A stretch of 64,000 nt of DNA, taken from NCBI GenBank assembly GCA_947447665.1, contig CANFJX010000002.1, positions 209,659 through 273,658 on the forward strand, read 5' to 3'. Position numbers and translations under genes: made by a program. This document shows, one piece after another, positions 6,868-57,357 of this stretch (the first letter of the stretch is position 1; every line of letters begins with the position of its first letter). The notes beneath the pieces were generated by a model, which was not told the origin of the DNA, searched no databases, and was given only the letters and a program-made list of their open reading frames with translations. This DNA is from Bacteriovoracaceae bacterium. GTDB lineage: Bacteria > Bdellovibrionota > UBA1018.

Positions 6868-6883
6868 ATTAAAACAAATTCTT

Positions 6884-8182
6884 TCATTGCAAGGCTCTTC
6901 CGATAAGCGATGGTTTTAATGACTCCCATGGATCACTCGTCAATCGCGAAAACAATGCGTCGCCAATCACGAGGCTAGTCCAAAAATTCTGCAAAACACT
7001 ACCTCTGTCGATCACTGGTTCCCGAAGTTGAAAAAAATAGGGGGCAATCCCCTGTTTAATGAAAAGAAAAGATGCTCTACTTTCCTGCTGACGAATCGAA
7101 TATGACTTATCTAGTTCTGTGAGAACAGCGTCCTCAAGGTGTGGGAAGTAAGAGTCCTCTAAATCACTCATCAGCTCACTCCATCGATTTTTTAAACCTT
7201 GCCAATCTCCCTTGATACTTTCCACATAGGCTACTACCTGATTCAGGTGCTCCGAGTTGAGCTCCAGTGCAGCTTGAATCTTAGGTTCGAACTCAGGAAG
7301 CAAAAAATCTTCGCAAACCGCAGTAATCAGTAAAAGTGCGCCTTCATCGATTGCACTTATGGCGCGGATCTGGTGTTGTCGAATCTCCTGAATCAGCTCC
7401 CACTGACGGCTGATCTTGCCCGATTCGATTGCAGAATCAATCGAGCTCCAAACAGCTAGAACCGCAACAGCCACGACTGCGCCTACTGGTCCAGCTGCAG
7501 AAGTCGCGACCAAACCCTTCAGTACTCCAAGTTTGACTGCAGTACCAGCGGCGGCACCGGCGAGTGATCCGACAACACCCTTCGCATTGGTTCCGCCCTG
7601 AGAATGAGCCTCGCCTGCCGAATCTATTGAGATGGTGCAATCTTCTTGTGGAGGCAGAAGAGCAGCTAGATTAGGCAGTACAAAGATCTTCTTAGGTTGA
7701 TTGCGATCGAGAGCCCACTGCAATCGGTCGTTTGCGCATCGGGTTTTCCAAAATTCGGAGATTGAACTCAGATCGCTTCTCACGTTTCGAAGCGTAACAA
7801 GCTCATCTTCGAGATCTTTTTGGATGAGGAGTATTTTTAATACACTTTCGGAGAAAGATGCAGGTGTAGCCCGCATGATTTCTTGCATTTTTAGATCCCA
7901 ATTATTTTTGAGCTGCTCAGATTTATTTGAGGCAGTCTCTTGCATTTCTAACAGGATCTGAAAGGCGTCCCAGTAGTCGGATAACCGCTGTAAGAAATGG
8001 GTCTTAATATCTGATTTAAACTTTTTATCTACGTAATCCTTGTAGCTAACTTTGGTCTCATGGAGAATTTCTGATAAGAGCGTAATATTATCATCTAATT
8101 TGTCGGCAAAGGCAGGGGTAATTGTGTTGGAATTTAATGAAATACAAATAAAAATTGCGATTATTTTGTTTTTATTTTTCAT
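6884..8182 (-). CDS. Secreted coiled-coil and glycine-zipper protein (432 aa), paralogous in its central domain to the 728-aa protein
   Basis: Signal peptide MKNKNKIIAIFICISLNSNTITPAFA. The glycine zipper GVVGSLAGAAAGTAVKLGVLKGLVATSAAGPVGAVVAVAVLAV is followed by ESGKISRQWELIQEI, to be compared with ESQSGVQGLIREKWQSF in the 728-aa protein. Confidence 0.6.
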   Translation of the reverse strand: MKNKNKIIAIFICISLNSNTITPAFADKLDDNITLLSEILHETKVSYKDYVDKKFKSDIKTHFLQRLSDYWDAFQILLEMQETASNKSEQLKNNWDLKMQEIMRATPASFSESVLKILLIQKDLEDELVTLRNVRSDLSSISEFWKTRCANDRLQWALDRNQPKKIFVLPNLAALLPPQEDCTISIDSAGEAHSQGGTNAKGVVGSLAGAAAGTAVKLGVLKGLVATSAAGPVGAVVAVAVLAVWSSIDSAIESGKISRQWELIQEIRQHQIRAISAIDEGALLLITAVCEDFLLPEFEPKIQAALELNSEHLNQVVAYVESIKGDWQGLKNRWSELMSDLEDSYFPHLEDAVLTELDKSYSIRQQESRASFLFIKQGIAPYFFQLREPVIDRGSVLQNFWTSLVIGDALFSRLTSDPWESLKPSLIGRALQ

Positions 8183-8188
8183 ATTTTT

Positions 8189-10162
8189 TTAATTTCCAGC
8201 CAAACTCGTCAATACACTGAGGTGGAGAGATAATCTCTGAATTGCGTCCTCTGGAGTAATCATTTTAAAACCGGTAATCACAGATGCGGGTGATACTAAT
8301 GCGGAATTGGGAATCAATTTCCTAACCTTTTCGATTTCGACTGTTTTCTGGTTTAAAAATAAAATATCAAAATTGGCATAAGCTGATTGGATAGCGATTA
8401 AATCTCCGAAAATTTTATCGAACCAGCCAAAAATATGAAAAAACCGGGATGAATGAGTCCGATCTAAAGCAACTCTTTCTGGATTTGGAGCCACCAGATC
8501 CGGAGATATGACTTCGGATCTGACATGATCTGGAACGGTTGAGTTGTAGCTTGGAAAGATATCATACTTAGCTTTTATGTTTTTAGGATCTCTCAAATCA
8601 GGATTGCCCAAGCAGACTGGGATCTCGAAATGACTTGTAAAATTAATAATTTGATCTTTAAGTCCTTCAGTTGCCTTGTTGTATTTTAAGCACTTTTGGA
8701 GTGATTGATGGAGACTCGATTTAAAAAAACTATCCACCTCGAACAGAGAGTCCTCCAATTGCTTTTTGATCAGCGTCAGATCGGGATGCGCATGATTAAT
8801 CTCTCGCATTGCCTCTAAAAGGGGTTCGGCTACCTGCAACAATTGATCACGCGAAACCACCGCACCTGGGACGTTTTCCTGTTCAGTAAGTGGCCGGACC
8901 AAGTGGCGGTCCCAAGCTTCAATCAAGGCTGCTCCCCGGGCCAGGAGGATGGGATTAATCTCCTCTGCAAGAAATTGAAGCTCTCCCGTAAAGATGTCAT
9001 CACTGTCTTTCCGAGAGAACAAATGGGTGATGCTTTCAGAAACGAGGAGCCGGAGAATCCGAGACCAGTGAAACTGAAACCAACTTCGAGCCACGTCAGT
9101 TCTCATCTGCTCCAACTCGTAAAAGTCTCGCACTACGGACCCTCGAGTTAACTCGAAACCCGCATCAAGGAAATTTTGATAGTATTCGTAATTTCCTGGC
9201 ACGGAAGGTCCAGGAGTACCGGACGGTCCTACCCCTAAACTCGAAGGGCTCGGGGTGCTAGAATCCACCTGACCACAGGCTCCTGGGCCCAGCTTCTTCG
9301 TGCCAAGGACTCGCCAACAAGAATCGCCGTCACCCCCTTGGCCAGGCCTTCCCTCGTCGCCCACTGGACCGCCTTCGCCTCCTGCTCCGCCTAATCCGGG
9401 AGAAGATTTTACGAAATTTAGCTGGAGCTCGCTTACGGTCTTTTTGGAAGTGAGAAAAACAATCGGAACTGAGCCACCACCCTTGCCTCCTGGGCCACCT
9501 TGGCCTCCCTGGCCTCTTTGTCCTGAATCGCCCCCATGGCCTGCTTCCCAGCTCCAAACAAGCCCAACCCAAGCCTTCTCGCCTCGGCCACCGGCGCCAC
9601 CGGTGCCACCCTTTCCACCGGTGCCACCTTGACCGCCTTTTTGTCCAGTTCCATCAATCGTTGGAGTTCCGATGACTTCAGCCGCAAAGACCAAAATCGG
9701 ACTTGGGGAGGCCTTTGCTGAAGGTCCAGTATATCCTGTGGCTCCAGTCCCTCCTACTCCCCCCTTTTCTCCATCATGCGTGCGCTCGCTTGATACATTC
9801 CTACAGGAATCACATCCAGTGGATCCTTGAACACCCACTGCAGGCATCAAATGGTTCCGCGCCATGGGGAGAGAATAAGCCTTAATCGTCGCGCCAGCCT
9901 TAAACTCAAGTCTGCGGGTATCGATCAGGAGCTGATGGCCCCGAGTCACAATGGTCCCATTAATGATGACTTCATCCGCTTTGATAACCGTGGGACCGGT
10001 CAAAACGTAAACTGGATTTCCCAATGTGACTCGATCATGCGACCTTCTCATTGCGCCTGAAAAATCTTCGAATTCGCTGGGGGGTGGCAGCTCAACACAC
10101 AACGCTTGATGTACCATTGTGAACCAAGCGCACGCCACCGTCCAAACGCTGAATTTACTCAC
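8189..10162 (-). CDS. Secreted bacterial collagen-like protein (657 aa): N-terminal beta-rich segment, several interrupted (G-X-Y)n runs, C-terminal helical domain
   Basis: Runs such as GEKGGVGGTGATGYTGPS, GQKGGQGGTGGKGGTGGAGGRGEK and GLGGAGGEGGPVGDEGRPGQGGDG keep Gly at every third position. The 8-bp start/stop overlap with the upstream gene is another sign of operon packing. Confidence 0.65.
   Translation of the reverse strand: MSKFSVWTVACAWFTMVHQALCVELPPPSEFEDFSGAMRRSHDRVTLGNPVYVLTGPTVIKADEVIINGTIVTRGHQLLIDTRRLEFKAGATIKAYSLPMARNHLMPAVGVQGSTGCDSCRNVSSERTHDGEKGGVGGTGATGYTGPSAKASPSPILVFAAEVIGTPTIDGTGQKGGQGGTGGKGGTGGAGGRGEKAWVGLVWSWEAGHGGDSGQRGQGGQGGPGGKGGGSVPIVFLTSKKTVSELQLNFVKSSPGLGGAGGEGGPVGDEGRPGQGGDGDSCWRVLGTKKLGPGACGQVDSSTPSPSSLGVGPSGTPGPSVPGNYEYYQNFLDAGFELTRGSVVRDFYELEQMRTDVARSWFQFHWSRILRLLVSESITHLFSRKDSDDIFTGELQFLAEEINPILLARGAALIEAWDRHLVRPLTEQENVPGAVVSRDQLLQVAEPLLEAMREINHAHPDLTLIKKQLEDSLFEVDSFFKSSLHQSLQKCLKYNKATEGLKDQIINFTSHFEIPVCLGNPDLRDPKNIKAKYDIFPSYNSTVPDHVRSEVISPDLVAPNPERVALDRTHSSRFFHIFGWFDKIFGDLIAIQSAYANFDILFLNQKTVEIEKVRKLIPNSALVSPASVITGFKMITPEDAIQRLSLHLSVLTSLAGN
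9170..9780 (-). repeat. Low-complexity GGN/ACC-rich coding repeats, e.g. ccaccggtgccacc units, that encode the collagen-like G-X-Y tracts
   Basis: The visible reiteration of ccaccggcgccaccggtgccaccctttccaccggtgccacc gives rise to spurious Pro-rich antisense ORFs. Confidence 0.6.
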
Positions 10163-12515
10163 TTTCGATCTCCTCTTGATTCTGGCTAAAACTGCCTAAG
10201 TCGCCCTTGGGTCCATCCGGATTCACAGGCCCTAGGGTTCCTGCTGGCAGCTCGAAGCTCCGCGTTTTAACTTGGGGTAAGATTTGGTGATCTAACAGGT
10301 CCTTGGCAGCTATTTGTTCCTGAAGAGCAAGAAGGGCTTGCTCGGCACGCGCACGAATACAATCTAAATTGATTCCTGGGCAAACTCGATTGAGTTTTTG
10401 AGCCTGTTGCGTGGGAGAGAGGTAGCTAAAGTCTTCCTTGATAAACACTTGAATTGTCGGATCCGTCTCAGACTTTCGTGTAGCCGACTCAAACAGGAGG
10501 CGTAGGTCATGAATAGATGGATTGTCTAAAAAATGATCGCCACTAGCGGTCGAAGCCTCAGCAGATCGCGATAAACTCCATCGCCTAGTAAATTGAATAA
10601 AAGTAGCTAAATCCAAGTCCGTAGCGTCGCCATCACCACCTCGTCGCGCAGGCACGGCCCTTTGTCCTGAACCACCTTGGCTCTCTAAGATAGGAAAAAA
10701 ATTCACTCGGGGCGCCTGGTCTGCCCCTCCAGGCCCAGGTCTCAATCTTACCCTGAGGCTACCACCAGAATAACCTTTCAAGGCTTTCGCAAGAGCAGCT
10801 CGACCCGGTTGGGCTTCTTTTTCGATCACATGGAGAACAAAATAATAGGTTCCCTGGCCCCTGGAGAAATCAGGATGGTTCACCTGGAAACCTACGATCA
10901 ACGGAAACGTGATCGCAGCATCTTCTTTTAGGGGACTCTCTGCGGGCAAGTCCGGATGCTTTAGGGCTGAGCTCAGATCAAATAAGGATCCATCGATTTG
11001 TGTAGTCACCCAATCTAAGCTCACATCAGGAGCGATGATAGCAGAGTCAAACGGCATATTCACTGTGGGTGTCTCTAGTTCAACCCGGGTCGGACCGACC
11101 GCTCCGTCAACAAAAGTGCAACCGCGCTCTTCTATTAGATGGGCTAAGTCTGCGGCATTTCCGACTGAAATTCTCCTTGAGGGAATACCAGCAGCATCCA
11201 GCGCACCACAAAACGATTGAATGGAAGCAGTCGTTGGGTGGAGATAGGCATTCAGTCGAAAGGTTAAAATTCGGTCAAGCAGAGTCAAGCTTGCAGGGAC
11301 CGGTAAAACGGGGACAGAGGCTAGTTCAGGAAATGCTACACTGGGCATGACTCGCTGAATTCTCAGTCGAAACCACATTGCATCCAACGATTGATGCGTA
11401 TATCCGCTGGGTAAGCTCTCCAAAAACTCAGAAATCGGCTGATTACTTCTCTGTAGTTCAGTCTCATAGCGTCGGTACAAGTCCTCAATCCAAGCAAGAG
11501 CGTGAACTGATGAATGGACAGGACTCAGTTTTCTCTCGATCTCTCGCAAGTCCATAAGTAAATTCCATCCCAGTCGAAGTTTGGAATATACCTGCTCTTT
11601 TTCAGTAGGTTCTCTTCCTCGATTCTGGAGTAGTTCAGAAAAAAAGGCCTGCTTCAGTCGATCGAGAAATTCGTTCAGTTGATCTTGTCTTAGGTTTAGA
11701 AAAATAGACTCGCTCGAACTCATGAAAAGTTGTATTAAATTGGAGAATCTAAATTTATTCAAAAGTAAGTTAAATGTTTCTGGGCTTTTAATGATGGAAT
11801 CAAGAGTCCTGTTTAGAAAATGAACATGCCCCAATTTTTTTAGATGAAATTGGACCAGTGAAATGACAAGAGAACTATTAGGGTTCTCTTCGGAAAGCAG
11901 GGACTCGACTACTTTTTGCCAAGTTGGAGCTGAAAAAATTCCAATCAACTCTCGCCAGTTAAGATTTTGATTCAGCTTTGATTCTTCAGTCAATAATTCT
12001 GCCAAATAGGTGGAATTCTCAAGAAGATCGATTGGATCCTGTTGACGGACTAATTGAGTGTTCAGCTCGGATAGAATTGCGCTCAGCGCATCAGGTGATA
12101 GAGGCGTGGTACATTTCTTAAGTGGCTTTAATAAGTAAGCTAGACCGTGAGCATGAGTGCGAGCAACCTCTCCAAAGGATTGGAAATGCTCGATTTGGCA
12201 AGAAATCGAATGTAATTGAAAAAGTTTATCTCGATTGTCGGGCTCAAGCTGGTCTAAAATATTTCTACTTAGAACCTCGCCCCAGAACTTAGACCACCCA
12301 AAGTCTGCTGGAATACTTTTTTTAATTCTGTCTAATGCTTGTGATCTCTCTTGGTTATTGGAGGCTTTTCTTAAAATATAGATTGCAGTATCTGCATTGA
12401 ATGTAGGGTGCACGCTGACGCCAACTAAGCCACGGCTGCAGCTAGTGGCAAAAAAAAGCGTTAGAACACATGGATAAATCAGCTGAAACAATGTAGTTTT
12501 TAAATCCATTTTCAT
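10155..12515 (-). CDS. Large secreted or lipoprotein-like hypothetical protein (786 aa), first gene of the operon
   Basis: N-terminus MKMDLKTTLFQLIYPCVLTLFFATSCS is a signal peptide with a possible lipobox. The rest is mostly helical with no recognisable catalytic motif. Confidence 0.6.
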   Translation of the reverse strand: MKMDLKTTLFQLIYPCVLTLFFATSCSRGLVGVSVHPTFNADTAIYILRKASNNQERSQALDRIKKSIPADFGWSKFWGEVLSRNILDQLEPDNRDKLFQLHSISCQIEHFQSFGEVARTHAHGLAYLLKPLKKCTTPLSPDALSAILSELNTQLVRQQDPIDLLENSTYLAELLTEESKLNQNLNWRELIGIFSAPTWQKVVESLLSEENPNSSLVISLVQFHLKKLGHVHFLNRTLDSIIKSPETFNLLLNKFRFSNLIQLFMSSSESIFLNLRQDQLNEFLDRLKQAFFSELLQNRGREPTEKEQVYSKLRLGWNLLMDLREIERKLSPVHSSVHALAWIEDLYRRYETELQRSNQPISEFLESLPSGYTHQSLDAMWFRLRIQRVMPSVAFPELASVPVLPVPASLTLLDRILTFRLNAYLHPTTASIQSFCGALDAAGIPSRRISVGNAADLAHLIEERGCTFVDGAVGPTRVELETPTVNMPFDSAIIAPDVSLDWVTTQIDGSLFDLSSALKHPDLPAESPLKEDAAITFPLIVGFQVNHPDFSRGQGTYYFVLHVIEKEAQPGRAALAKALKGYSGGSLRVRLRPGPGGADQAPRVNFFPILESQGGSGQRAVPARRGGDGDATDLDLATFIQFTRRWSLSRSAEASTASGDHFLDNPSIHDLRLLFESATRKSETDPTIQVFIKEDFSYLSPTQQAQKLNRVCPGINLDCIRARAEQALLALQEQIAAKDLLDHQILPQVKTRSFELPAGTLGPVNPDGPKGDLGSFSQNQEEIESE

Positions 12516-12596
12516 AAATTTTTAGTTTCTATTTAAAATAAACGGATGTATATTACGAAACGCATTTATAAGTCAACTATTCATTGTTGGTATTAA

Positions 12597-13304
12597 ATGA
12601 GAATTTTTAAACGAATTAATTCGAGTGAAAGCATGAAGATTTTTATTTTCATAATATTTTGCACCATTCTTGGTCCAGTAGTCCAAGCCGAAGACCTACC
12701 TGTTGCAATTAATTTAAACGAAGAGATTCCACAGAAGCTGATCTATGGCGATGTTTTTATTGGGCAAAGCATTGAACCTAACCAGCATAAACTTAACTCT
12801 TACATTCAGTATAGTTCAGGTACTAACAGTCCCCAGTACTCGCTCACAGGTGCTAATTTAGGTTCAGATTATTGGCTTCTAAATTCACTTATGGTTGGTA
12901 TGAGTCTAAATTACTATTCAAGTTCTCCACTTTTACTTCAAGAAGTTCTCAGTAATGAACTCCGACTCAATGCAGTTTCACTTAAATATTACAGCCCAAA
13001 ATTCGGAATCTACGCCCATTTGGGGTATGTCCCACTTCAGGGGATCTTCAATCTATTTGAGAAGTTTGTAATTAAATCGAGTCTCATTGTGGGACTCGGT
13101 TTAGGGACGACCCAATATAGTGATCACGCATTTTATCCAGGCATAAAGATCTTTATCGAAGAAAGACTCCTTCTCTACAAAACATTTGGAATTAGCTTGG
13201 GTATTACGCATTTCTGGGAAGGAAACCATCCTCAACTGGAATCTCAAAATACTCATTGGTTAAGCAGGGATCAAGTGGTTTCGGGGGTCTACCTTGAACT
13301 CTAG
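12597..13304 (+). CDS. Small secreted protein, probably an outer-membrane beta-barrel (235 aa; the start may be the internal Met at 12633)
   Basis: Signal peptide MKIFIFIIFCTILGPVVQA. Alternating hydrophobic pattern. It is divergent from the secreted operon across an AT-rich intergenic region. Confidence 0.5.
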   Translation: MRIFKRINSSESMKIFIFIIFCTILGPVVQAEDLPVAINLNEEIPQKLIYGDVFIGQSIEPNQHKLNSYIQYSSGTNSPQYSLTGANLGSDYWLLNSLMVGMSLNYYSSSPLLLQEVLSNELRLNAVSLKYYSPKFGIYAHLGYVPLQGIFNLFEKFVIKSSLIVGLGLGTTQYSDHAFYPGIKIFIEERLLLYKTFGISLGITHFWEGNHPQLESQNTHWLSRDQVVSGVYLEL

Positions 13305-13818
13305 AATTAAAACCACTTTAACCTTAGGGCTGACTGCATTCTTTCTTCTCGGGGCGCTAGACGGCTTTTCCTCCCAAGAAAGGGCCAACTTAGACCTGGG
13401 TCGCCTCATGAATGCCCAAAAGAAAAGCTACCTAGAAAGGAATTGGGATGCATTTTTTGGGACTGCTCAAGTGTATCGGCTCGCTTGGTGGAACGAGGTT
13501 CCATCCGTGACGCTGATCGCCCTCGAAGCTCTGGCGCTCGCTCGTCATTGCCGATATGCAGAGGCTGAATTGCTCATTGCCACCTTGGGTTCTCATTCAA
13601 GCGCCCGACGTGGTGAAACGGAGGCCATCCAGCAAGTCAAACACCTTCTGACTTCTGTTAAAAAGTTAGGCATCCAGGCACAAGAGAATTCCTCTCTCCA
13701 TATCTCGTCGAGAGCTAATCCCGAAGTATTTTGGCCGATCCAAAACTTATCACTTTGGAAGCGTTTACCGCCCACTTCCTTCCGTGTGCATATGGAGAGT
13801 AAATGTCGTTTAGAATGA
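13294..13818 (+). CDS. Secreted helical-repeat (TPR-like) protein, 174 aa
   Basis: Signal peptide MNSRIKTTLTLGLTAFFLLGALDG. Overlaps both neighbours. Confidence 0.5.
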   Translation: MNSRIKTTLTLGLTAFFLLGALDGFSSQERANLDLGRLMNAQKKSYLERNWDAFFGTAQVYRLAWWNEVPSVTLIALEALALARHCRYAEAELLIATLGSHSSARRGETEAIQQVKHLLTSVKKLGIQAQENSSLHISSRANPEVFWPIQNLSLWKRLPPTSFRVHMESKCRLE

Positions 13819-15773
13819 ATCTCATTCGATTGGCTCCTCTAGTGTTCGGCGCCTTTTCTCCGGCCTGGGGAGTCGCTCTCCCTTCGGTGGATGACGTCCG
13901 CCCTCCGGTCAAGGCGTCAGACACGATCTCATCAGCTTCCGCCCTTCTGGCGGCAGGGGAGCCAGAGCAGGCGATTACCATTTTAAGGGCGATTTTTTCT
14001 TCCAAAAGGGCAGGAGACATTCGGTTTAATGCGGCTCTTCTTTTGGCTTCATTTGGCCCAGGCACGAGTGCCTTCCCTGATCGTGCCGTTTATGCAGAAT
14101 TTGTTCTGAGTCATCCTCTGGCTGTCAGCAGGTTAAAAAATTCAGATCGAATTCGACTCCTCAGGAGCGCAGGACTCGGTTGGTTTAGTTTGGCGAGATG
14201 GCCCGAGGCCTCCCTCTCGTTCGAAAAGCTGCGGAACCTCGGAGGACCTGACGATGGCTCCCTCTCCGAGCTTCATCTCGGCTGGATTGAGTTGAACCAA
14301 AAGAATCCAAAGCTAGCTCTGCAGCGTTGGTTAAGTTTTCTCGGTCATCACCAGCATGAGGTCGATCAACCATGGGGACCCACGCTCATCCGGGACCTGG
14401 GTCATGTCTGGATTGAAGCTGGAGGGTTCCCGCCCGAGGTTGGTGAGCAAATCGACCGACTCATCCAAAGTCATGATGAACTCAAATATTTCCGGGAGGG
14501 GATGTCACAAGGACTAGGTTTGATTCCTTTGGATTCTCCCACATGGGCCAGTTTTCGGGGCTCAGCATTAAAAACTCGTATGAGTCGCCACCTAGCGGAT
14601 TTACTCCTCAAAAACCCTGAGGCAATCGAGTCACATCCCTGTGAAATCTTAGACTGGATCAAGCAGGACGGCTCCATCGGAGGCGGCGAAACTCAGGGTC
14701 AATTATTTGTCTCGCTCCAGAACTGCTTAAAGTCCCCTGGGATTACCGAAGGGGAAAATCGCAAAGTACTACTCACTTTATTGCATCCATGGATGTCTCA
14801 CCTCAGGAAGAGCTCGGGCATTTCGATTGAGGATCGGAGATTCGCTCTTCTTCATATTTTTTATCTTCAAAATGAACCAGACCTCAAAAAGAGGCAGGAG
14901 TGGTTAGAGAAATTTTACCCCAGCCCATCGGAAGTCAAAATCCTTAAGAATGGCCCAGTAGCTCTCCTGTGGTTGGAGGTTCTGCAAAGGCGCGCACATG
15001 ACGAAGATACTTCAATGATCAGAAAGTCATGGATTGATAATTTTTTAGAGAATCCGAGTCAATTTGAATTTGTACCCATACCTCCAGATGACCTCACACT
15101 CATTGCCTTGCAAATCAGTCAACAAGAACAAGTTTGGCTCCCGATCTGGAATTATCTCAATCGACTTGGGACAAAGATTTTCACTTCAGAAAGGGTTTTG
15201 GGATCACTTCACGTTTGGCTAACTAGCTTCATTTCACGTGCATTCTTGGACGGAAGCCTTCCGCCTGAGCCGTCAGTTGAATCGATTACTCAACCCTATT
15301 TTAATATCGTTCGATTTTTTATCTATTTGGAAAATCAATTTAACCAAAGTTTACAGCCCAGTGTTGAGTCTGACTTAGTTGGAGCATCCTGCCTAAAGGA
15401 TCATCTTAACGCTCAATTTAACACTCAATCTAGTCCGATATTTTCGGCCTACCATAGTACACGCGATGGCATAACTAGTTTAAAATCTGCATTAAAAATA
15501 AAAATCAAATTAGAATCTTCGCACTTCTTTAGCGACTTAAAAAAGCAAATAAGTTTCATCAAAAGTGGCTCATTATTTCTAAGAAAGGCTGGAATTTTAT
15601 TTCCGCCTGTCAAGCAAACCATGGCGAAAGTGTCAAATCTATATATTGACTCAATTCGATCTAACATTCAAGCGATAGAAGCACCCAATGAGTGGTCAGT
15701 GCCTGATCAAGAATCTTGGCGTGCCCAAAGGAAGCAGATTGCAGATGGCCTAAACGAGTGGAGAGCTGAATGA
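13803..15773 (+). CDS. Secreted 656-aa protein with an N-terminal TPR-like region
   Basis: Signal peptide MSFRMNLIRLAPLVFGAFSPAWG. The helical-repeat N-terminus includes AITILRAIFSSKRAGDIRFNAALLLASFG. Confidence 0.55.
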   Translation: MSFRMNLIRLAPLVFGAFSPAWGVALPSVDDVRPPVKASDTISSASALLAAGEPEQAITILRAIFSSKRAGDIRFNAALLLASFGPGTSAFPDRAVYAEFVLSHPLAVSRLKNSDRIRLLRSAGLGWFSLARWPEASLSFEKLRNLGGPDDGSLSELHLGWIELNQKNPKLALQRWLSFLGHHQHEVDQPWGPTLIRDLGHVWIEAGGFPPEVGEQIDRLIQSHDELKYFREGMSQGLGLIPLDSPTWASFRGSALKTRMSRHLADLLLKNPEAIESHPCEILDWIKQDGSIGGGETQGQLFVSLQNCLKSPGITEGENRKVLLTLLHPWMSHLRKSSGISIEDRRFALLHIFYLQNEPDLKKRQEWLEKFYPSPSEVKILKNGPVALLWLEVLQRRAHDEDTSMIRKSWIDNFLENPSQFEFVPIPPDDLTLIALQISQQEQVWLPIWNYLNRLGTKIFTSERVLGSLHVWLTSFISRAFLDGSLPPEPSVESITQPYFNIVRFFIYLENQFNQSLQPSVESDLVGASCLKDHLNAQFNTQSSPIFSAYHSTRDGITSLKSALKIKIKLESSHFFSDLKKQISFIKSGSLFLRKAGILFPPVKQTMAKVSNLYIDSIRSNIQAIEAPNEWSVPDQESWRAQRKQIADGLNEWRAE

Positions 15774-16036
15774 AAATTCTATCGAAAATGGCGATTATTT
15801 TCGTACTTTTTGTCTGCACAGCTGGACTGGTAATCCAAACCAAGGCTCAACCGCCTCAAGAAGAGGTTGACCTAGGGATCCTATCGGTTGAAGGCAGCAT
15901 TCGCTACCCAAGTTTCCAGGTGATCGAAAACCCTGAAACCCTCAGGAAGGTAACTCGCGAAGCATTGGGCCGTGAGCTGACTAGAATTGAGGAAGAAGTA
16001 CTCAGGTCTTGCGGGAGTGAAAATGAAACTGAATAG
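15770..16036 (+). CDS. Small secreted protein (88 aa)
   Basis: ATGA overlap with the upstream gene. Hydrophobic N-terminus MKILSKMAIIFVLFVCTAGLVIQT. Confidence 0.4.
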   Translation: MKILSKMAIIFVLFVCTAGLVIQTKAQPPQEEVDLGILSVEGSIRYPSFQVIENPETLRKVTREALGRELTRIEEEVLRSCGSENETE

Positions 16037-17120
16037 CCTTACTCAGATCTTTGCTCCCTGCCAAATTAGGGATAACCTTCGACTGAGCGTGGTGCCGCAG
16101 TCATTACTCCAGTCTCCCCCTCCCTTCGAGGCGAAGATGTCTCGAAACGGGCTTGAGATCCAGATCAAATCTTCTGACTCCCTTAAGGTCGTCAAAGCTG
16201 GGGTCGTCATTTATGACGGTAGACAGCTGATTTTTGAATCTAATTCTAATTTTCGAATTTTTGGAAGTTACGAGGACACTCTCGTGATTTCAAATCACTT
16301 CGGAGACTCATGGACTGTGTCGTTTAAATACGAAATGGCTTCGCCAGATGACCAGCAAGCGGGGATGTTTGCAAAATCATTTTTCGAGTCAGGCATGGCA
16401 CATTTGCTCCTCGTGATCCTGATAGCAGGGGCAATTTACGCCCAGAGCATACCCCTCCAACGATCGTCACCTCTCGACTCATCTTTAGGCCTCCGAATAG
16501 AAAGTAGAAATTCTGAGGCACCTTTAATTACATTTACGCCGTTTTCTGGGATGAGTCTGCGTGAATTTGAAATGCCAGAGTCATCGGAGCATTCAAATAC
16601 GAAGCGGACGTTTCAGCCTTTGAAGGCCCTTGGAAAAACGGCCTCATTTCTCAAATCATTCTTCGGCGGGAAGGCGAATCAGGCCCTCGAGATTACGTCA
16701 GGCCGATCCGCTTTGAGTGCAGTCGAGACAGCAAAAATTGACACCAGTCGACTGCTCGAGTCCACCCTAAAAAGGGACAACAGAATAGCCGGGGGCTCCG
16801 AGCAATTGGCAGCTCGAGCTAAGTCAAACGAACGAGAAAATAAATTAAGGCAAAAACTAGAGTCACTCAAACCAAAATTGACTGAAGCATTCGATCAAGC
16901 GGTTCGAATGGATCCGGCATTTTCTGTGAGTGTAACTATCGAGGGCTTGGTAAATAGTCGTGGACGGCTGTCCAGCGTCGAGCTCAAGTCTAGAGGTCAT
17001 TCTACTCCCCTGGCGCTAGCTGCCTTCGAAAGGCAAATCAGAAATATTCTTGAATCAGTAGAAATAGGCAATGAATTCTCAGGGCTCAAGTTACGAACGG
17101 AACATGTTTTTATCAAGTAG
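15987..17120 (+). CDS. TonB C-terminal-domain protein with atypical topology: about 125 aa come before the single TM helix (the start may be the ATG at 16023)
   Basis: TM segment MAHLLLVILIAGAIYAQSI at about residue 125. The C-terminus SVSVTIEGLVNSRGRLSSVELKSRGHSTPLALAAFERQIRNILESVEIG resembles the TonB-C fold signature. ExbB and ExbD genes lie directly downstream. Confidence 0.55.
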   Translation: MRKKYSGLAGVKMKLNSLTQIFAPCQIRDNLRLSVVPQSLLQSPPPFEAKMSRNGLEIQIKSSDSLKVVKAGVVIYDGRQLIFESNSNFRIFGSYEDTLVISNHFGDSWTVSFKYEMASPDDQQAGMFAKSFFESGMAHLLLVILIAGAIYAQSIPLQRSSPLDSSLGLRIESRNSEAPLITFTPFSGMSLREFEMPESSEHSNTKRTFQPLKALGKTASFLKSFFGGKANQALEITSGRSALSAVETAKIDTSRLLESTLKRDNRIAGGSEQLAARAKSNERENKLRQKLESLKPKLTEAFDQAVRMDPAFSVSVTIEGLVNSRGRLSSVELKSRGHSTPLALAAFERQIRNILESVEIGNEFSGLKLRTEHVFIK

Positions 17121-17150
17121 GAATAATTATTTTAGGAGGACAGTAATTTT

Positions 17151-17795
17151 ATGATTAAGACGTTGTTTGATATTTTTCTTTTTTTGGGATCTGAGTGGGT
17201 TTTGTGGATTTTGGGAGGTTGTAGCCTTCTTTGTATTGCAGTGATTTTTGATCGTAGACGGGCGATTAGCGCTCAGGATCGGGTTGGAGAGAGGCTTTGG
17301 GCGGGTGCACTAAGAGTTTGGGTTACGGATCAGGTTCCTGCCGACTGGGCACTTCAGGCACCTGAGTTTTTGAAGCGGTATCCTTGCGTAGAAGCTAGGC
17401 TCCTCAACTCGTTAGCCAATCGAAATCGTATCACTACCGGTGATATTGAAAAGATCAGCCTAAGTGTTTTAGCCGCCGAAAGATTAGAGTTAGAACGAAA
17501 CCTGGCAATCCTAGGTACCCTTGGAAATTCTGCCCCATTTATCGGTCTTTTTGGAACCGTTCTGGGAATTATCAAGGCTTTTTCGCAACTCGATCAGGCC
17601 GCCAGCGGAAGCGGACTTAATTCAGTGAGCGGTGGCCTAGCTGAGGCGTTGGTCACGACCGCGGCAGGCCTTTTAGTTGCCCTTCCGAGTGCGATAGCAT
17701 TCAATTACTTTCAGCGTAAAATAAAAGCGATTTTCTCTAGATCCATGAGCATAGCTGGTGCAGTGGGCTCAAGCCACAAAGAGGAGCGAATATGA
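17151..17795 (+). CDS. exbB: MotA/TolQ/ExbB-family proton channel
   Basis: 214 aa, three TM segments. Motif GTLGNSAPFIGLFGTVLGIIKAF is typical of ExbB/TolQ. Confidence 0.85.
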   Translation: MIKTLFDIFLFLGSEWVLWILGGCSLLCIAVIFDRRRAISAQDRVGERLWAGALRVWVTDQVPADWALQAPEFLKRYPCVEARLLNSLANRNRITTGDIEKISLSVLAAERLELERNLAILGTLGNSAPFIGLFGTVLGIIKAFSQLDQAASGSGLNSVSGGLAEALVTTAAGLLVALPSAIAFNYFQRKIKAIFSRSMSIAGAVGSSHKEERI

Positions 17796-18202
17796 ATGTA
17801 CATGATTTAGAGTCTGATGGACTCATCACTGAGATCAATGTCACACCCTTTGTCGATGTAGTATTAGTGCTACTCATCCTCTTCATGCTCGCAGCCCCGG
17901 CAGTCTACCAGTCAGCGCTTAAAGTAAAATTGCCTACTGTCACTTCTGCGAGTAAGGTGAAGCATGTCACACTTCATTTTTTTGTGAGTTCCAAAGGGGA
18001 GATTCAGGTGGATCGCGAGAGGATCCAAGCCCACGCAGTTGAGGCGCTTGTGAAGCGCGCAATTTCAATCGATCCAAACGCTGACGCGATGATCTCAGCA
18101 GATAAAAGCGTCGCCCATGGCAACGTAATTGAGATCATTGACCTGATCAAGACGAGTGGAATTCATGAAGTGGCTTTGGCGGCCACTGAGAGAAAGATTT
18201 AG
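17792..18202 (+). CDS. exbD: ExbD/TolR-family biopolymer transport protein
   Basis: 136 aa. The single TM helix carries the conserved Asp (PFVDVVLVLLILF). ATGA overlap with exbB. Confidence 0.85.
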   Translation: MNVHDLESDGLITEINVTPFVDVVLVLLILFMLAAPAVYQSALKVKLPTVTSASKVKHVTLHFFVSSKGEIQVDRERIQAHAVEALVKRAISIDPNADAMISADKSVAHGNVIEIIDLIKTSGIHEVALAATERKI

Positions 18203-18608: not shown

Positions 18609-19094
18609 TTAGAGCTGCTTTCGAGTGACGATCACGATCAGCTGTTCGCCTTGGAGCATGGGACAGGGCAAAACGAGATTCTTGCGAGTCTTACTTCCAG
18701 GGATCACTCGGACCACCTTCGACTCAAATAGACAACCCTCTTGAACAAAGATCTCTGCGTAATTAGCTTCTACTTTCGGCCAGTCACGGTCAAGGTAAGT
18801 CGAAACACGAATCTCAGGCGAGGGCGAAGACATCAAGTAATCGAATGTAGTGTCTTGGACGGCGACAGTGAGATCATCTGGGCTCTGAACCCCTTGCTGG
18901 ACCCGAATTTCAATCGTTTTCATCGCTTGTATATCGGCCATCAGCAGCTCAATGTCAAGCCGGAGGCGTTTTGGGTCTTCTTGGCTCAGACTTTGTTGAG
19001 CTAGGGTTGAGTTCCTATTTGCAGGAATCTCCAGGAGGCCGTAGTATTTTTTTAAGATCGACCTCGCTAGGAAGACTGATCGCCGCCTTGACAC
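18609..19094 (-). CDS. Hypothetical small protein (GTG start on the track; more likely about 110 aa from the internal Met), directly downstream of the 798-aa secreted protein
   Basis: The ORF overlaps the end of the 798-aa gene by 80 bp. No recognisable motif. Confidence 0.3.
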   Translation of the reverse strand: MSRRRSVFLARSILKKYYGLLEIPANRNSTLAQQSLSQEDPKRLRLDIELLMADIQAMKTIEIRVQQGVQSPDDLTVAVQDTTFDYLMSSPSPEIRVSTYLDRDWPKVEANYAEIFVQEGCLFESKVVRVIPGSKTRKNLVLPCPMLQGEQLIVIVTRKQL

Positions 19095-21411
19095 GGAATG
19101 AGCCGATGAGTTCCCGATTGTCCTGACTGATGTATCTCGAGCGATGATCAGTTGAGTCGATCCATTCGATTTTACGTGAAGGACTCATACTTGGCTCTTT
19201 TAGAAAATGGCTCAAGCCCTCATTGTATCGCTTTACCTCCAGGGTCGACGGGTAATCTTTGGTATGGCAAAAACTATCCAGGTAGCATATGCGCGCCAAG
19301 CGGATTAAGTTTTCTTCTTTCGATCGATCCATCTCCGAGAGAGCTACATAGATCAGCTCGGGGAAGGCCCCCTGATCCAACCCTCGCAGCTTTGAGTAAG
19401 GACATTCTGAGAAGAACTGCATTTTTTCTGCCTCGGTTTCGAATGGATGGTCAGCTAACTTGAGGGCGGCCACGAAAGCTTTCCACTTGCCGCGAAAATG
19501 AGGGAATTGAGACGCTTCAGCAAAGTCCATGGACTGGGGGAGTTTTCCGGTAGTTTGAGTCTGCTGGAGGACTAGATCAAGAATTTTTGGCCAATAAGGT
19601 TCAGATTTAACCTTGCTCATAAAGCTAAAAGCCACGGGCCATTGAAGATGACCTTGCATGGCTGTTTTCATCATCTGTTTAAAGAGTTCCTCTCGCACTG
19701 GATTAAATCGCTCGTCCCATTCAACTTCGCTTAAGAGTTCAGGGTCGCTTTGGTAGATGGACTCAAGATCGTTGCTCCGGCTGTAAGGGTGTTGATTTCG
19801 CTGGTTCAAAATGTCATCTAGGCTCACCGAAAGCTCACTACGCATAATTAGATATCTAGCCTTATTCAAGGGAGCGAGATCAGCAGATCCAAAACTACTT
19901 TGACTTCGATCTAAATTTAAAAAGATTCGTGCGGCTAGATGTTGAGCTTCGGTCAAATTTAACTGTCTAAGGACGTCAACTTGGTTCGTCTTCGAGTTGG
20001 GAGAGAGCTCTTCTGCAACTCCGCTTCGTTTTGGATCATCTAAAATTTGCGCAGCAAATAGCGCCCGCTGCAATAAATTCATTTCCGAAAATTTTGGAGA
20101 TGGAAGCTGAATTGGAACCTGTGAAATAGATTTCCAGCCCCGAGTCCGCTGAGGCAGCGTATCCAGTGATTCTAGAGACACCATCACTGCGGCGCTAATG
20201 TCGTTGGGGTTGTAATAGTTATGATATCCCGAGTGATCCTTTGCCTGAAATTTGGAAACAATCGAGAAGCCATTTGGCAATTCGACTTGCATTTTGATTC
20301 CTGATTTTGAAGTCATGGCCTGTCGAATGTCTGGGTGATTCACTAACGAATCATTCGCAAAAAAATTAGGTAAAATTAAATCATTCACGCCTGATTTTTT
20401 TGCAATCAGCTCCATGATTTTTTTAGCGTGATGCTCATGAAGGGCTGGGCCACTGATGGTCAGAATATAAGGCAGTTTCTTTCCGTCGGGCGTGGTCGCA
20501 TCGATGACGACGGTATACCCCTTGATTTTTTCACCTTCCTTAACCCAGTAAGCTTGAACTCCACGACTCAGAACGTAGTGAGGAACTGAGGCAATCGAGC
20601 AGTCACCTCCAAAGATACCTCGAAAGGGGGTAGCGGCAGTCGGGATCTCCTCTAGGGTGAGTGTTTTTGGGAAGAGATGGGCGCCTTCAGTGCTCACCGG
20701 GGTGGTAGCTTTCGCGATCTGCTTTCCGATAAAATCACGTTTCACTTGAACCCATCGCTCACCTAAAACTCCAAGTCCTGGAGTCACCCTCAGCTCGTCC
20801 ACCTGATTTTTAAGGTGTTCTAAATTAGATTGAGAGTAGATTTCGTTCAACTGATCACCCTTGACGGAATCGAGGAAGCTTTCAGGATTCCCTGGGGCTG
20901 CTTTTAAAATGGGATAGGCGCGGAGGTAACTTGAAACTCGTTTCTTAAAGTCCTCCTCTCGCTTTCTTACGTCTTTTTCCGAGCGAGCTGAGTCCTTCCA
21001 ATCTCTGAGAACCTTTTTAAAATCTAATGGGTCGGAACCACTCTTGATTGCAGCACGGAGGACAGCCAGGTCGTGAAAGAGAGAGTCCTGGATAGACTTG
21101 ATCGCCCTTGGGTCGACACGTCCTTCTGAGTCAAAATAACTGATCGAAAGCCTCTCGACGGAGTTAAAGGCCAAAGGCTTGGCCTCGGCCCCTAAAAGGT
21201 GATGAACCTCGTTAAGATTTTCAACGGTGAGCATCAGATTACGCCGATAGTCTAAATGAGTGGCAAAAAGTTTATCACCATAGAGGCGGTCGAGTGATCG
21301 CAAAAACGCTACGCGACTCAGTGCTGTCGATAGGTCAGGTTCGTCATTTCCCCCATAGCAAAGACTGCCATTCATCATCCATAAAATGACTATAACGATT
21401 AGGGAGCGCAT
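19015..21411 (-). CDS. Secreted hypothetical protein, 798 aa
   Basis: Signal peptide MRSLIVIVILWMMNGSLCYG. No confident domain assignment. Confidence 0.6.
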   Translation of the reverse strand: MRSLIVIVILWMMNGSLCYGGNDEPDLSTALSRVAFLRSLDRLYGDKLFATHLDYRRNLMLTVENLNEVHHLLGAEAKPLAFNSVERLSISYFDSEGRVDPRAIKSIQDSLFHDLAVLRAAIKSGSDPLDFKKVLRDWKDSARSEKDVRKREEDFKKRVSSYLRAYPILKAAPGNPESFLDSVKGDQLNEIYSQSNLEHLKNQVDELRVTPGLGVLGERWVQVKRDFIGKQIAKATTPVSTEGAHLFPKTLTLEEIPTAATPFRGIFGGDCSIASVPHYVLSRGVQAYWVKEGEKIKGYTVVIDATTPDGKKLPYILTISGPALHEHHAKKIMELIAKKSGVNDLILPNFFANDSLVNHPDIRQAMTSKSGIKMQVELPNGFSIVSKFQAKDHSGYHNYYNPNDISAAVMVSLESLDTLPQRTRGWKSISQVPIQLPSPKFSEMNLLQRALFAAQILDDPKRSGVAEELSPNSKTNQVDVLRQLNLTEAQHLAARIFLNLDRSQSSFGSADLAPLNKARYLIMRSELSVSLDDILNQRNQHPYSRSNDLESIYQSDPELLSEVEWDERFNPVREELFKQMMKTAMQGHLQWPVAFSFMSKVKSEPYWPKILDLVLQQTQTTGKLPQSMDFAEASQFPHFRGKWKAFVAALKLADHPFETEAEKMQFFSECPYSKLRGLDQGAFPELIYVALSEMDRSKEENLIRLARICYLDSFCHTKDYPSTLEVKRYNEGLSHFLKEPSMSPSRKIEWIDSTDHRSRYISQDNRELIGSFRVKAAISLPSEVDLKKILRPPGDSCK

Positions 21412-21465: not shown

Positions 21466-22224
21466 TTATTCCTTGAGCGCCTGGACGTAATCCCGTCGCA
21501 TTTGAGCGATGGTGTCGATTGAAATTTCCTTTGGACAAGCAGCCCGGCACTCGCCGATATTGGTGCAGTTTCCGAAACCCTCTAAGTCCATCTTTTGAAC
21601 CATTCGGAAGACGCGCTTGGATCGCTCAGGATTTCCTTGAGGCAGCAGGCCGAGATGGGAGATCTTCGCTGCTGTAAAAAGGGACGCAGAAGCATTCGGG
21701 CAGGCTGCTACACAAGCGCCACAACCAATGCAGGTCGCGTTGTCCATGGCTTGATCGGCTACTGGCTTAGGAATTAAGTGAGAGTTCGCGTCTGGGTGGG
21801 GACCTGTTTTCGTTGAGACATATCCACCAGCAGCGATAATCCGGTCGAATGCCGAACGATCTACCACCAAATCCCGAATGACCGGGAACGCTTTGGAGCG
21901 CCAAGGCTCGATAATGATCGTGTCTCCATCTCCGAAGTGTCGCATGTAGAGTTGGCAAGTAGTCGTCGCTTGCAGAGGACCGTGAGCTTGTCCATTGATG
22001 ATGACTCCACAAGAGCCACAAATCCCCTCGCGGCAGTCACTATCAAACTCGACCGGCGCTTTGCCGGATTTGATGAGTTGCTCATTGAGTAAGTCGAGCA
22101 TTTCTAAAAAGGAGATATCATCATCAATGTCAGACAACTGGTAAGGCTCAAAGGAACCCTGGGCTTCTGGGTTTTTCTGCCGCCAAATTTCCAAGTTAAG
22201 CTTAAGTTTTGGCATAGTGCTCAC
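21466..22224 (-). CDS. sdhB: Succinate dehydrogenase/fumarate reductase iron-sulfur subunit
   Basis: Cys clusters [22 protein letters not shown] and [12 protein letters not shown]. Confidence 0.9.
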
Positions 22225-22233
22225 CTACTCTTT

Positions 22234-24162
22234 TTATTTATAACTTCTTTGGGAGAGTTTAATGCTCTCGAAATGGAGGTCTTCCTTATTCAGGGTCTCT
22301 GGCTTATTCTGGCCGGTATAACCCCAGGCTGCTACATAGCAAAAATTCTCGTCATCTCGTAATGCCTCACCTTCTGGAGTTTGGCTTTCCTCTCTGAAGT
22401 GTCCACCACAAGACTCGGATCGATTCAAGGCATCGGCAGCCATGAGTTCACCTAACTCAAGAAAATCAGCAACTCTTCCGGCCATTTCCAGGTTTTTATT
22501 GAACTCAGTTGCCTCGCCTGGGATCAAAACCTCATTCCAGAATTCTTCGCGAAGCCCTTGAACCTTTTGAATGACGGTTTTCAGTCCCTTCTCATTCCGG
22601 GCCATGCCGACATGATCCCACATGAGGTGACCCAGTTCGCGGTAGAATTCGAGTACTGTTTTCTTCCCTGTTTTTCCAACGGTGAGAAGCTTTTGAATTT
22701 CAGAGCGGACCGAATTCTCTGCATCGGCAAAAGCAGGATGTTGTGTATCCACTGCAGGCAAAGGGGTCGAAGCAATGTAATGCCCGAGGGTGTAGGGTAT
22801 TACAAAGTAACCATCGCAAAGACCCTGCATGAGGGCGCTCGCACCGAGGCGATTCGCTCCGTGGTCTGAGAAATTAGCCTCGCCTAGGACGTGGAGCCCT
22901 GGGATGTTTGACATCAAATTATAATCCACCCAGAGTCCACCCATCGTGTAATGGATGGCAGGGTAGATCCTCATGGGCGTCTGATAAGGATTCTCATTGG
23001 TAATTTTATCGTAAATCTCAAATAGATTTCCGTACTTTTCCTTAATCGTTTGGAGGCCATCGCGTTGAATCGCATCCTTGAAGTCGAGGTAAACTGCATA
23101 GCCGCTTGTACCCACTCCCCTACCTTCGTCGCAGACCTCTTTGTTATTTCGCGAAGCAACGTCACGTGGCACTAAGTTACCAAAGCTTGGGTACTTTCTT
23201 TCTAAGAAATAATCTCTTGCATCCTCCGAGATTTGGCTCGGAGGCTTTGAAGCGTCTTCTTTTCTTTTAGGCACCCAGACACGACCATCGTTTCTCAAGC
23301 TCTCAGACATGAGAGTGAGCTTGGACTGATGGTCTCCGGAGACCGGAATGCAGGTGGGATGAATTTGAGTAAAGCAAGGATTGGCGAAAAGTGCCCCACG
23401 CTTATGGGCGCGCCAGCTTGCTGTACAGTTGGAGTTAAACGCATTAGTCGAGAGAAAGAAAACTCGTCCATAGCCACCTGTAGCCAAGAGGACGGAGTCG
23501 CCTGCATAGCGTTCCATCGCGCCCGTAGTTAGGTTTCGGCAGATGATTCCTCGGGCCTTGCCGTCTATCATCACGAGATCCAGCATTTCGCGGCGGGAGT
23601 ACATCTCCACTTTGCCCGCATCAACCATTCTCATCAGGGCTTGATAAGCACCTAAGAGGAGCTGTTGGCCGGTCTGCCCTCGAGCATAAAAAGTTCTAGA
23701 AACCTGTGCCCCGCCGAACGAACGATTGGCGAGTTCGCCGCTGTATTCGCGGGCAAACGGGACGCCCTGAGCTGCACATTGGTCGATGATATTGGAACTG
23801 AGCTCAGCGAGGCGATAAACGTTCGCTTCTCGGGACCTGAAATCCCCGCCTTTGATGGTATCGTAGAAAAGCCGATAAACACTATCCCCGTCATTTGGGT
23901 AGTTTTTAGTCGAGTTGATTCCGCCCTGGGCGGCAATGCTATGGGCTCTTCGAGGAGAATCTTGAATGCAGAAGCATTTTACGTTGTATCCAAGCTCAGC
24001 GAGCGAGGCTGCTGCTGAGGCACCTGCGAGTCCGCTTCCTACCACTAAAACCGTGTGTTTTCGCTTATTCGCCGGGTTGACGAGCTTAATCGAGCCTTTG
24101 TGATTGCTCCATTTTTCCGATAAGTCACCTGAAGGAATTTTTGAATCTAGGTTCATACTCAC
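22234..24162 (-). CDS. sdhA: Succinate dehydrogenase/fumarate reductase flavoprotein subunit
   Basis: N-terminal FAD-binding motif [19 protein letters not shown]. The His for covalent FAD lies in the SIAAQGGIN context. 642 aa. Confidence 0.95.
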
Positions 24163-24170
24163 GATTTCCT

Positions 24171-54208: not shown

Positions 54209-54211
54209 GGC

Positions 54212-57319: not shown

Positions 57320-57357
57320 GTTTTAACCTTCCCTAGAGTGAATGAGAGAGACGGGTC

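Follow-up and report, generated by a model that had tools for sequence, protein, structure and literature searches.

A conserved seven-gene envelope module pairing a TolQ/TolR-family motor with a TonB/GltG-like candidate transducer in Bdellovibrionota-like bacteria

Organization of the seven-gene module

The 64,000-nucleotide stretch analysed here (hereafter the window; contig CANFJX010000002.1 of a Bacteriovoracaceae bacterium) carries seven consecutive plus-strand open reading frames (ORFs) that fill positions 12597-18202 and encode, in order, an outer-membrane (OM) β-barrel-like protein, three secreted proteins, a bitopic force-transducer candidate and the two subunits of a TolQ/TolR-type motor. 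An earlier sequence-only reading had described an envelope motor-like cluster here, and the ORF map recovers all seven ORFs with the coordinates given, on the plus strand. Five of the six gene junctions overlap by 4-16 nt, the exception being a 30-nt gap ahead of the TolQ-like gene; such overlaps are typical of translationally coupled operons, and the seven genes constitute one. Hydrophobic leaders are found at the N-termini of the first four proteins, the fifth has one internal hydrophobic helix, and the G+C content of the module is unremarkable. The divergent 81-bp intergenic region (12516-12596) that separates the module from an oppositely oriented operon of orphan genes is likely to be a promoter region. 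One sigma-70-like match lies at 12511-12539 (+), but since such matches are rarer than in shuffled sequence it is no evidence on its own, and promoter and terminator scans of the module region were uninformative.

The last two genes encode the motor. The 214-aa channel subunit (17151-17795, +), which is of the TolQ/ExbB/AglR type with three transmembrane (TM) segments, matches MotA_ExbB (PF01618) at 6.5e-29, and the 136-aa TolR/ExbD-type subunit (17792-18202, +), present as a single copy, matches ExbD (PF02472) at 4.9e-26, in agreement with the ExbB/ExbD-type pair proposed previously. The affinity of the motor was judged by comparing hidden Markov model (HMM) bit scores. With the NCBIfam models the channel subunit scores 110.5 bits for TolQ against 73.6 for ExbB, and the small subunit 90.4 bits for TolR against 67.7 for ExbD; all four values fall short of the equivalog cut-offs (221 bits for TolQ and 127.3 bits for TolR), so that by NCBI criteria the pair qualifies neither as bona fide TolQR nor as bona fide ExbBD. 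When compared with PDB sequences the channel subunit again aligns with TolQ over its full length (66 bits) and with ExbB over the C-terminal part only (53 bits), whereas the small subunit is ambiguous (ExbD 56 bits, TolR 45 bits). The channel motifs GLFGTV and TTAxGLxxAxP are kept at all loci in an alignment that includes E. coli TolQ and ExbB, and the PFVDVVLVLL motif of the TolR-like subunit, including its TM aspartate (D22, nt 17855-17857), is kept in seven of seven loci, these being the window cluster and the six related loci described below (L004 to L009), each of which contains one ExbD-family gene only. Judged from its sequence, the pair is an inner-membrane TolQ/TolR-family proton channel in which the key residues (Thr and Pro of the channel, Asp of the TolR-like subunit) are intact.

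The sequence-only reading had regarded the position of the transducer gene ahead of the motor genes as a departure from a canonical order. This premise does not hold, as exbB-exbD-tonB is merely one of several common arrangements, and the gene order of the module alone is consequently not unusual.

The first gene (12597-13304, +) encodes 235 aa from its first ATG, or 223 aa from the start at 12633 preferred by gene callers. Its product has a signal-peptide-like N-terminus and weak matches to TIGR04565 (OMP_myx_plus, 6.2e-5) and to PF03797 (Autotransporter, 0.025); its homologues in L006 and L008 also match TIGR04565 (1e-5 to 1e-4) and end in the aromatic residue (...F) typical of outer-membrane proteins (OMPs). 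The signal peptide and the weak TIGR04565 matches here and in two relatives are the only basis for the earlier assignment as an OM β-barrel. By position and size the protein is a GltA/B/H-like candidate for the OM end of the machine.

The three secreted proteins that follow (174, 656 and 88 aa) gave no Pfam or NCBIfam match at E<=0.1. The 174-aa protein (13294-13818, +), helical and with an N-terminal hydrophobic leader, has orthologues at the same position in L004, L005, L006 and L008, and those of L008 and L006 show sub-threshold tetratricopeptide repeat (TPR) matches (TPR_19/TPR_14, 4.9e-4 and 0.03). The 656-aa protein (13803-15773, +), helical, placed like GltC/GltD and presumed to be a periplasmic scaffold, has orthologues of 598-794 aa in all six related loci, among which those of L004 and L005 give sub-threshold TPR_6/TPR_2/TPR_16 matches (1e-3 to 5e-2) in the N-terminal ~90-185 region. 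The profile of this family retrieved only itself in the word-indexed protein search, and from the PDB only the TPR domain of EccA3 at an insignificant E of 0.11. The description of both proteins as TPR-like is therefore carried by sub-threshold matches in their orthologues and not by the window proteins, which have none. The 88-aa protein (15770-16036, +) has a signal peptide, and its gene overlaps that of the transducer; counterparts are kept in L004, L005, L006, L008 and L009, and the family carries the conserved segment [IV]D[LV]G...[VI][EQ]G..R.P..Q.I[ED]. A lipoprotein identity was considered for this protein and rejected, the Cys not being conserved in the orthologues.

Family and architecture of the candidate transducer

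The fifth gene (16023-17120, +) encodes the 365-aa force-transducer candidate. The longest ORF gives 377 aa from a TTG at 15987; the start at 16023 is backed by orthologues. The protein has no Pfam or NCBIfam match at E<=0.1. A word-indexed search of 5.8 billion proteins with the 377-aa query returned three matches, namely the query itself and two homologues at ~36% identity, and a HMMER search of 1.84 billion representatives with the profile of these three sequences returned 48 proteins, mostly of 340-390 aa and of the same layout. A profile of the C-terminal domain (CTD) alone retrieved nothing in the word-indexed search, the family profile gave only noise against PDB sequences, and a Pfam scan of 31 family members matched none of them. 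Members that were looked up are metagenomic 'hypothetical proteins'. The family is rare, and no curated model passes its threshold for it.

A single TM helix spans residues ~110-142 of the 365-aa protein (16350-16448), equivalent to ~122-154 of the 377-aa ORF, and the sequence-only reading had accurately placed it about 125 residues in. At the start of the helix S123 and H127 are conserved in at least 90% of the 31 aligned sequences; this SxxxH pattern is the first half of the Ser-His-Leu-Ser motif by which TonB and TolA dock on their motors (PMC12204202), the Leu and second Ser positions of which are not kept in the window protein. About 30 residues past the helix, in a disordered linker, lies a PFxGxS motif (PFSGMS in the window protein, residues 173-178, 16539-16556), of which F174 and G176 are near-invariant or invariant among the 31 sequences. 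In TonB and TolA, the disordered segment that follows the helix contains a conserved strand known as the 'motor box' (D-box; PMC12204202), and we infer that PFSGMS is a candidate motor box that may contact the TolR-like dimer. Further conserved residues are found in the C-terminal part of the family (G314, L316, G325, G354, E360 and F363).

Structure prediction with AlphaFold2 gave a poor model from an alignment of three sequences (mean predicted local distance difference test score, pLDDT, 47), which was replaced by a run with the 31-sequence alignment (mean pLDDT 78). The latter model contains an eight-stranded β-sandwich at residues 16-105 (16068-16337; pLDDT 92-96), a long helix at residues 110-142 (pLDDT ~96) and an α-β-β-α-β CTD at residues 270-365 (16830-17117; pLDDT 90-98), with a linker of low pLDDT in which Ser (15.6%), Leu (11.7%) and Ala (9.4%) are prominent and Pro is outside the eight commonest residues. 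A Foldseek search of the PDB with the CTD placed TonB CTDs on top, led by 6sly (E 0.041, probability 0.99) and including 5lw8, 8rd6, 1u07, 2gsk, 7zc8, 6fip, 2grx and 1xx3; probabilities for the TonB matches were 0.92-0.99 and target TM-scores 0.43-0.59, and the weaker three-sequence model gave the same outcome. These modest E-values are of the size published for the CTDs of GltG and GltJ, with the same entries 6sly and 7zc8 (PMC11761067). The 'TonB-C' assignment made from sequence is consistent with the predicted TonB-CTD fold; as a sequence family it is not recognised by any library, and neither PF03544 nor TIGR01352 matches the window protein or its 31 relatives.

As the protein lacks an N-terminal signal peptide and its TonB-like domain has to lie in the periplasm, the β-sandwich is presumably cytoplasmic. 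With this domain Foldseek returned low-probability Ig-like sandwiches only. Its profile weakly matches P0046, an 879-aa RTX protein with cadherin-like/Big_9 repeats, in four stretches (E 2.9e-4), which hints at an Ig-like sandwich; a TonB-like protein would not usually carry such a domain on its cytoplasmic side. An identity as an FHA domain was considered and rejected, since no Pfam match was obtained in 31 members and no FHA structure by Foldseek.

Conservation and genomic surroundings

Six related loci allow the extent of the module to be defined. L004 and L005 are the contigs that carry the two transducer homologues of ~36% identity; a scan of GTDB genomes with an alignment of the distant subfamily yielded three more (L006, L007 and L008), and a metagenome scan yielded one (L009), while a scan of genome contigs with the alignment of the close transducer family found nothing. 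All seven genes occur in the same order in L004, L005, L006 and L008, the order in L006 and L008 being OMP, ~200 aa, ~780 aa, ~80-95 aa, ~370 aa, TolQ and TolR. L007 and L009 are on contigs that end upstream and retain the last five genes (large scaffold, small protein, transducer, TolQ-like and TolR-like). By BLAST, a counterpart of each window protein is found at the matching position, with identities from 25% to 69%. The TolQ-like subunit falls from 67-69% through 52% to 37% across lineages, and the transducer from 35-39% to 25% over its full length, with ~30% confined to the CTD in the most distant loci, so that motor and transducer diverge in step. The genes common to the L008 and L006 neighbourhoods are the seven module genes only, and the flanks are not conserved across the six related loci. 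As judged by these comparisons, the seven-gene module is a conserved unit, kept together to a greater extent than expected by chance. L006 bears the label 'MAG: bacterium', L007 the label 'MAG: Bdellovibrionota bacterium' and L008 the label 'MAG: uncultured delta proteobacterium', and the module is carried by uncultured Bdellovibrionota-like lineages.

Receptor genes were sought within the window by scanning 40 ORFs of >=150 aa, including every ORF of >=600 aa (7 ORFs of 176-307 aa lay outside the scan). No Plug or TonB_dep_Rec domain of a TonB-dependent transporter (TBDT) was found in these 40 ORFs, nor among ten proteins of L008 that were scanned, which agrees with the earlier statement that the cluster has no TonB-dependent receptor.

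Upstream of the module, the divergent operon (5920-12515, -) consists of genes for four orphan envelope proteins that match nothing in Pfam or NCBIfam, of 315 aa, 432 aa, 657 aa (secreted, with long Gly-rich GGxGGxG tracts) and 786 aa (with the lipobox ATSC), and is kept at the same position in L004 with 33-52% identity. It was considered as a core part of the system and rejected: no counterpart adjoins the module in L006 or L008, and an operon common to L004 only is not core. Directly downstream lie a 161-aa ORF (18609-19094, -) with no Pfam match and the gene for a 798-aa secreted orphan protein (19015-21411, -) with no Pfam or NCBIfam match; both are present in same-species contigs and absent from L004. 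These are followed by a succinate dehydrogenase/fumarate reductase operon (21466-24866, -) encoding a flavoprotein, an Fe-S subunit and a 231-aa membrane subunit with a weak match to Sdh_cyt, which adjoins the module in same-species contigs only.

Elsewhere in the window, an 800-aa fusion of class-V aminotransferase (cysteine desulfurase-like), metallo-β-lactamase and rhodanese domains is encoded at 30804-33206 (+). Between two tyrosine-recombinase (phage-integrase family) genes at 36691-38076 (-) and 40877-41854 (-) lie a gene of the BtpA family, an ORF of 196 aa and a gene for a PMT-type (protein O-mannosyltransferase-like) glycosyltransferase; the region is possibly a small integrated element or a segment able to invert. 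At 51122-58791 (-), two AcrB-family RND pumps of 1028 and 1035 aa are encoded in tandem, and after them a 477-aa outer-membrane efflux protein, and a tRNA gene at 59110-59191 (+) is the sole Rfam match at gathering threshold in the 64 kb.

Relationship to Glt, Ton and Tol systems

The closest known systems are the Agl-Glt and paralogous Agl-Nfs machineries of Myxococcus xanthus and the 'expanded core complexes' of Bdellovibrio bacteriovorus (PMC3169522, PMC3858216, PMC11761067). In the G1 cluster of M. xanthus, gltD and gltE encode TPR proteins with signal peptides (1191 and 471 aa), gltF an 89-aa protein with a signal peptide and gltG a 640-aa protein with an FHA domain, a TM helix and TonB_C; gltH, also listed there, encodes a 209-aa OMP with a weak Autotransporter match (PMC3169522). 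An ancestral 'core complex' of gltC, D, E and G with aglR, Q and S, whose function is unknown, has been described, and Bdellovibrionota are already known to carry Glt-like clusters (PMC3169522). The contiguous order in Anaeromyxobacter is gltK-B-A-C-D-E-F-G-H; the four Bdellovibrio clusters encode GltB of 235-266 aa, GltC of 355-713 aa, GltD of 987-1237 aa and GltG of 376-707 aa, and each has an AglR homologue and two TolR-like genes (PMC3169522, Table S3). GltF homologues range from 52 to 185 aa, those adjoining a gltG homologue being mostly 82-90 aa (PMC3169522), and in Bdellovibrio they measure 82 aa in one cluster and 52 aa in the fifth, partial locus Bd3598-3601 (PMC3169522, Table S3). 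AglR contacts the machinery via GltG and NfsG.

The module resembles these systems in several respects. A TolQ/TolR-type motor stands beside a transducer, as in the Bdellovibrio clusters, and the transducer has the layout of GltG, running from a cytoplasmic domain through a TM helix to a TonB-like CTD; at 365 aa it has the size of the shortest Bdellovibrio GltG homologues (376-408 aa). Secreted helical, weakly TPR-like candidate scaffolds stand where GltC, GltD and GltE would be expected and are accompanied by a small OM barrel-like protein of ~220-250 aa, and the 88-aa secreted protein is encoded directly upstream of the transducer, as GltF before GltG. The order of the module is collinear with gltB/A-C-D-E-F-G of Anaeromyxobacter and with the Bdellovibrio clusters, which end in aglR/Q/S. 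No TBDT is present in the module, and the related loci come from Bdellovibrionota-type MAGs. A further link is provided by the relatives of the transducer. The only recurring NCBIfam family among them is NF033768 ('AgmX/PglI C-terminal domain'), matched by 15 of 31 members with a best E of 3.7e-5, with the CTD in register and with the closest relatives P0007 (3.7e-5), P0009 (1.3e-4), P0008 (3.5e-3) and P0004 (0.025) included, and one further member matches NF033760 ('adventurous gliding motility protein GltG') at 7e-4. GltJ and GltG were formerly called AgmX and PglI, respectively (PMC3169522). There is thus a weak indication that the CTD is distantly related to the C-terminal domain of GltJ and GltG.

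A number of observations weigh against a Glt affiliation. Every NF033768 match in the relatives is under the 40-bit cut-off and the window transducer itself matches no Glt or TonB model of NCBIfam, so that the link is transitive and remote; in hhalign the CTD profile aligned with the appropriate stretch of E. coli TonB (residues 166-226) but at a probability of 1.5%, which is not significant. The OMP and the 174-aa, 656-aa and 88-aa proteins show no detectable similarity to NCBIfam Glt models. The cytoplasmic domain appears to be an Ig-like sandwich and not the FHA domain of GltG and NfsG, with PF00498 found in none of the 31 members and no FHA structure by Foldseek. A single TolR-like gene takes the place of AglQ and AglS, two such genes being present in every Glt motor of Table S3, and the large scaffold (656-794 aa) is shorter than GltD (~1000-1200 aa). 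One barrel stands in place of GltA and GltB (and GltH), none of GltI/J/K, CglB, AglZ or MglA was seen among the 40 scanned window ORFs, and the sequence signal is confined to the CTD and is sub-threshold. The resemblance to Agl/Glt-type machines proposed in the sequence-only reading is therefore upheld in part: the TolQ/TolR scores, the absence of a TBDT, the GltG layout, the NF033768 and GltG matches in relatives and the GltF-like gene favour it, but the window protein has no Glt match and no FHA domain, there is one TolR, and the scaffolds and OMP lack homology to Glt models.

We consider it highly probable that this is a TolQR-energised, receptor-independent module built around a TonB/GltG-like transducer. 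With moderate confidence we further propose that it is a divergent member of the Glt/Nfs lineage, a reduced and very divergent relative of the Bdellovibrio and myxobacterial Glt clusters and not a system for iron uptake. By homology and from the conserved channel residues, the TolQ-like pentamer and TolR-like dimer would form the inner-membrane proton motor, on which the 365-aa protein may dock via its SxxxH helix (H127) and possibly via the PFxGxS motif. The transducer would span the periplasm, its TonB-like CTD pulling or holding co-encoded partners by β-strand addition. These partners may be the 656-aa, 174-aa and 88-aa proteins, among which the 88-aa protein and the N-terminal portion of the 656-aa scaffold are the best candidates, and force or position information would reach the OM barrel through the scaffolds. 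The cytoplasmic β-sandwich could serve as a handle for a cytoplasmic regulator or track, as FHA does in GltG. The predicted output is mechanical work at the OM, such as gliding-like or Nfs-like surface translocation of an adhesin or polymer, and not TBDT import. It may be gliding, surface polymer or adhesin transport (as for Nfs) or envelope tethering; a role in motility is suggested by analogy alone, and it seems unlikely that the module drives gliding.

The TolQR-energised transducer could alternatively belong to a novel envelope machine that is Glt-like by convergence or through a deep ancestry of the TonB/TolA type and whose output is unrelated to motility, for example the positioning, release or anchoring of the orphan secreted proteins and lipoproteins of the divergent operon, although we regard both this reading and the example as improbable. 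For six of the seven proteins no homology to Glt components is detectable, no curated model passes for the transducer family, whose members are all metagenomic 'hypothetical proteins', and the divergent orphan operon is kept beside the module in L004. Recent work has also described further non-canonical transducers encoded beside TolQR-like motors and TPR genes (PMC12204202): the vWA-type transducers, of unknown function, share with the module an SHLS-type TM helix and a disordered motor-box region beside a TolQR-like motor and an uncharacterised TPR gene, but carry a vWA domain where the module has a TonB-like fold. However, L006 and L008 lack the divergent operon next to the module, which places it outside the conserved unit, and the recurring NF033768 and GltG matches together with the collinear order are hard to obtain by convergence.

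A divergent TonB-ExbB-ExbD system, serving in nutrient uptake either unlinked TBDTs or the small co-encoded barrel, has in its favour the 5:2 motor family, the TM anchor with SxxxH, the TonB-CTD fold (Foldseek 0.92-0.99) and the slightly higher score of the TolR-like subunit with ExbD than with TolR among PDB sequences, and tonB genes often lie apart from their receptors. It is the more improbable of the two. TonB_C, TIGR01352 and all other TonB models fail to match any of 31 members, the linker is not proline-rich, and the channel subunit resembles TolQ more than ExbB. The anchor of the module transducer, unlike that of TonB, lies ~110 residues in, behind a folded cytoplasmic domain of ~105 residues, and the genes strictly co-inherited with motor and transducer encode four secreted non-receptor proteins; no TBDT was found in the scanned window ORFs or the ten L008 proteins. 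The lack of a TonB model match, of a Pro-rich spacer and of a receptor, with the four co-inherited secreted partners, argues that this is not a standard Ton system. The best motor models are TolQ and TolR. An OM tethering or constriction system of the Tol-Pal type also has to be weighed, in a lineage whose Tol system would be non-canonical, in which the transducer would act as TolA and the barrel and TPR proteins would replace TolB, Pal and CpoB. The linker is helical or disordered and not Pro-rich, as in TolA, the Tol-Pal operon includes the TPR protein CpoB, matched by a TPR-like gene here, and unusual TolB-like OMPs have been reported in Bdellovibrionales. This is the least probable of the explanations considered: the cluster and its related loci contain neither a TolB β-propeller nor a Pal/OmpA peptidoglycan-binding domain, and the absence of TolB and Pal argues that the module is not Tol-Pal. 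The motor scores lie far below the cut-offs (110 vs 221 bits for TolQ, 90 vs 127 for TolR), the gene order is reversed, and the transducer has a cytoplasmic domain, which TolA lacks. The taxonomic distribution is also very narrow, and the rarity of the module, for which 1.84 billion representatives yielded 48 clusters, is unlike that of a housekeeping system.

Glt-like clusters are to be expected by specialists in the Bdellovibrionota; the minimal composition with a single stator type nevertheless makes this one a useful model. On a tentative reading that we hold to be rather doubtful, the module would be a minimal surface motor of the Glt type, not described before and restricted to uncultured Bdellovibrionota-like bacteria, and the same caution applies to its proposed parts, namely a homodimeric TolR stator, a compact GltG-like transducer, an Ig-like handle, a scaffold pair, a small adaptor and a barrel. 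What the widespread Glt 'core complex' does outside gliders has been an open question since 2011, and a 2026 review still lists the motor that powers Bdellovibrio gliding as unidentified (PMC13104615). Being compact and kept intact across distant lineages, the module would be a tractable minimal model for structure prediction and for reconstitution of TolQR-type force transmission to an OM complex without a TBDT, and the transducer family is a possible addition to the catalogue of periplasmic force transducers. If the minimal Glt-type motor were to prove true, it would be the simplest complete engine for gliding or surface transport, or a new output class of TolQR-type motors.

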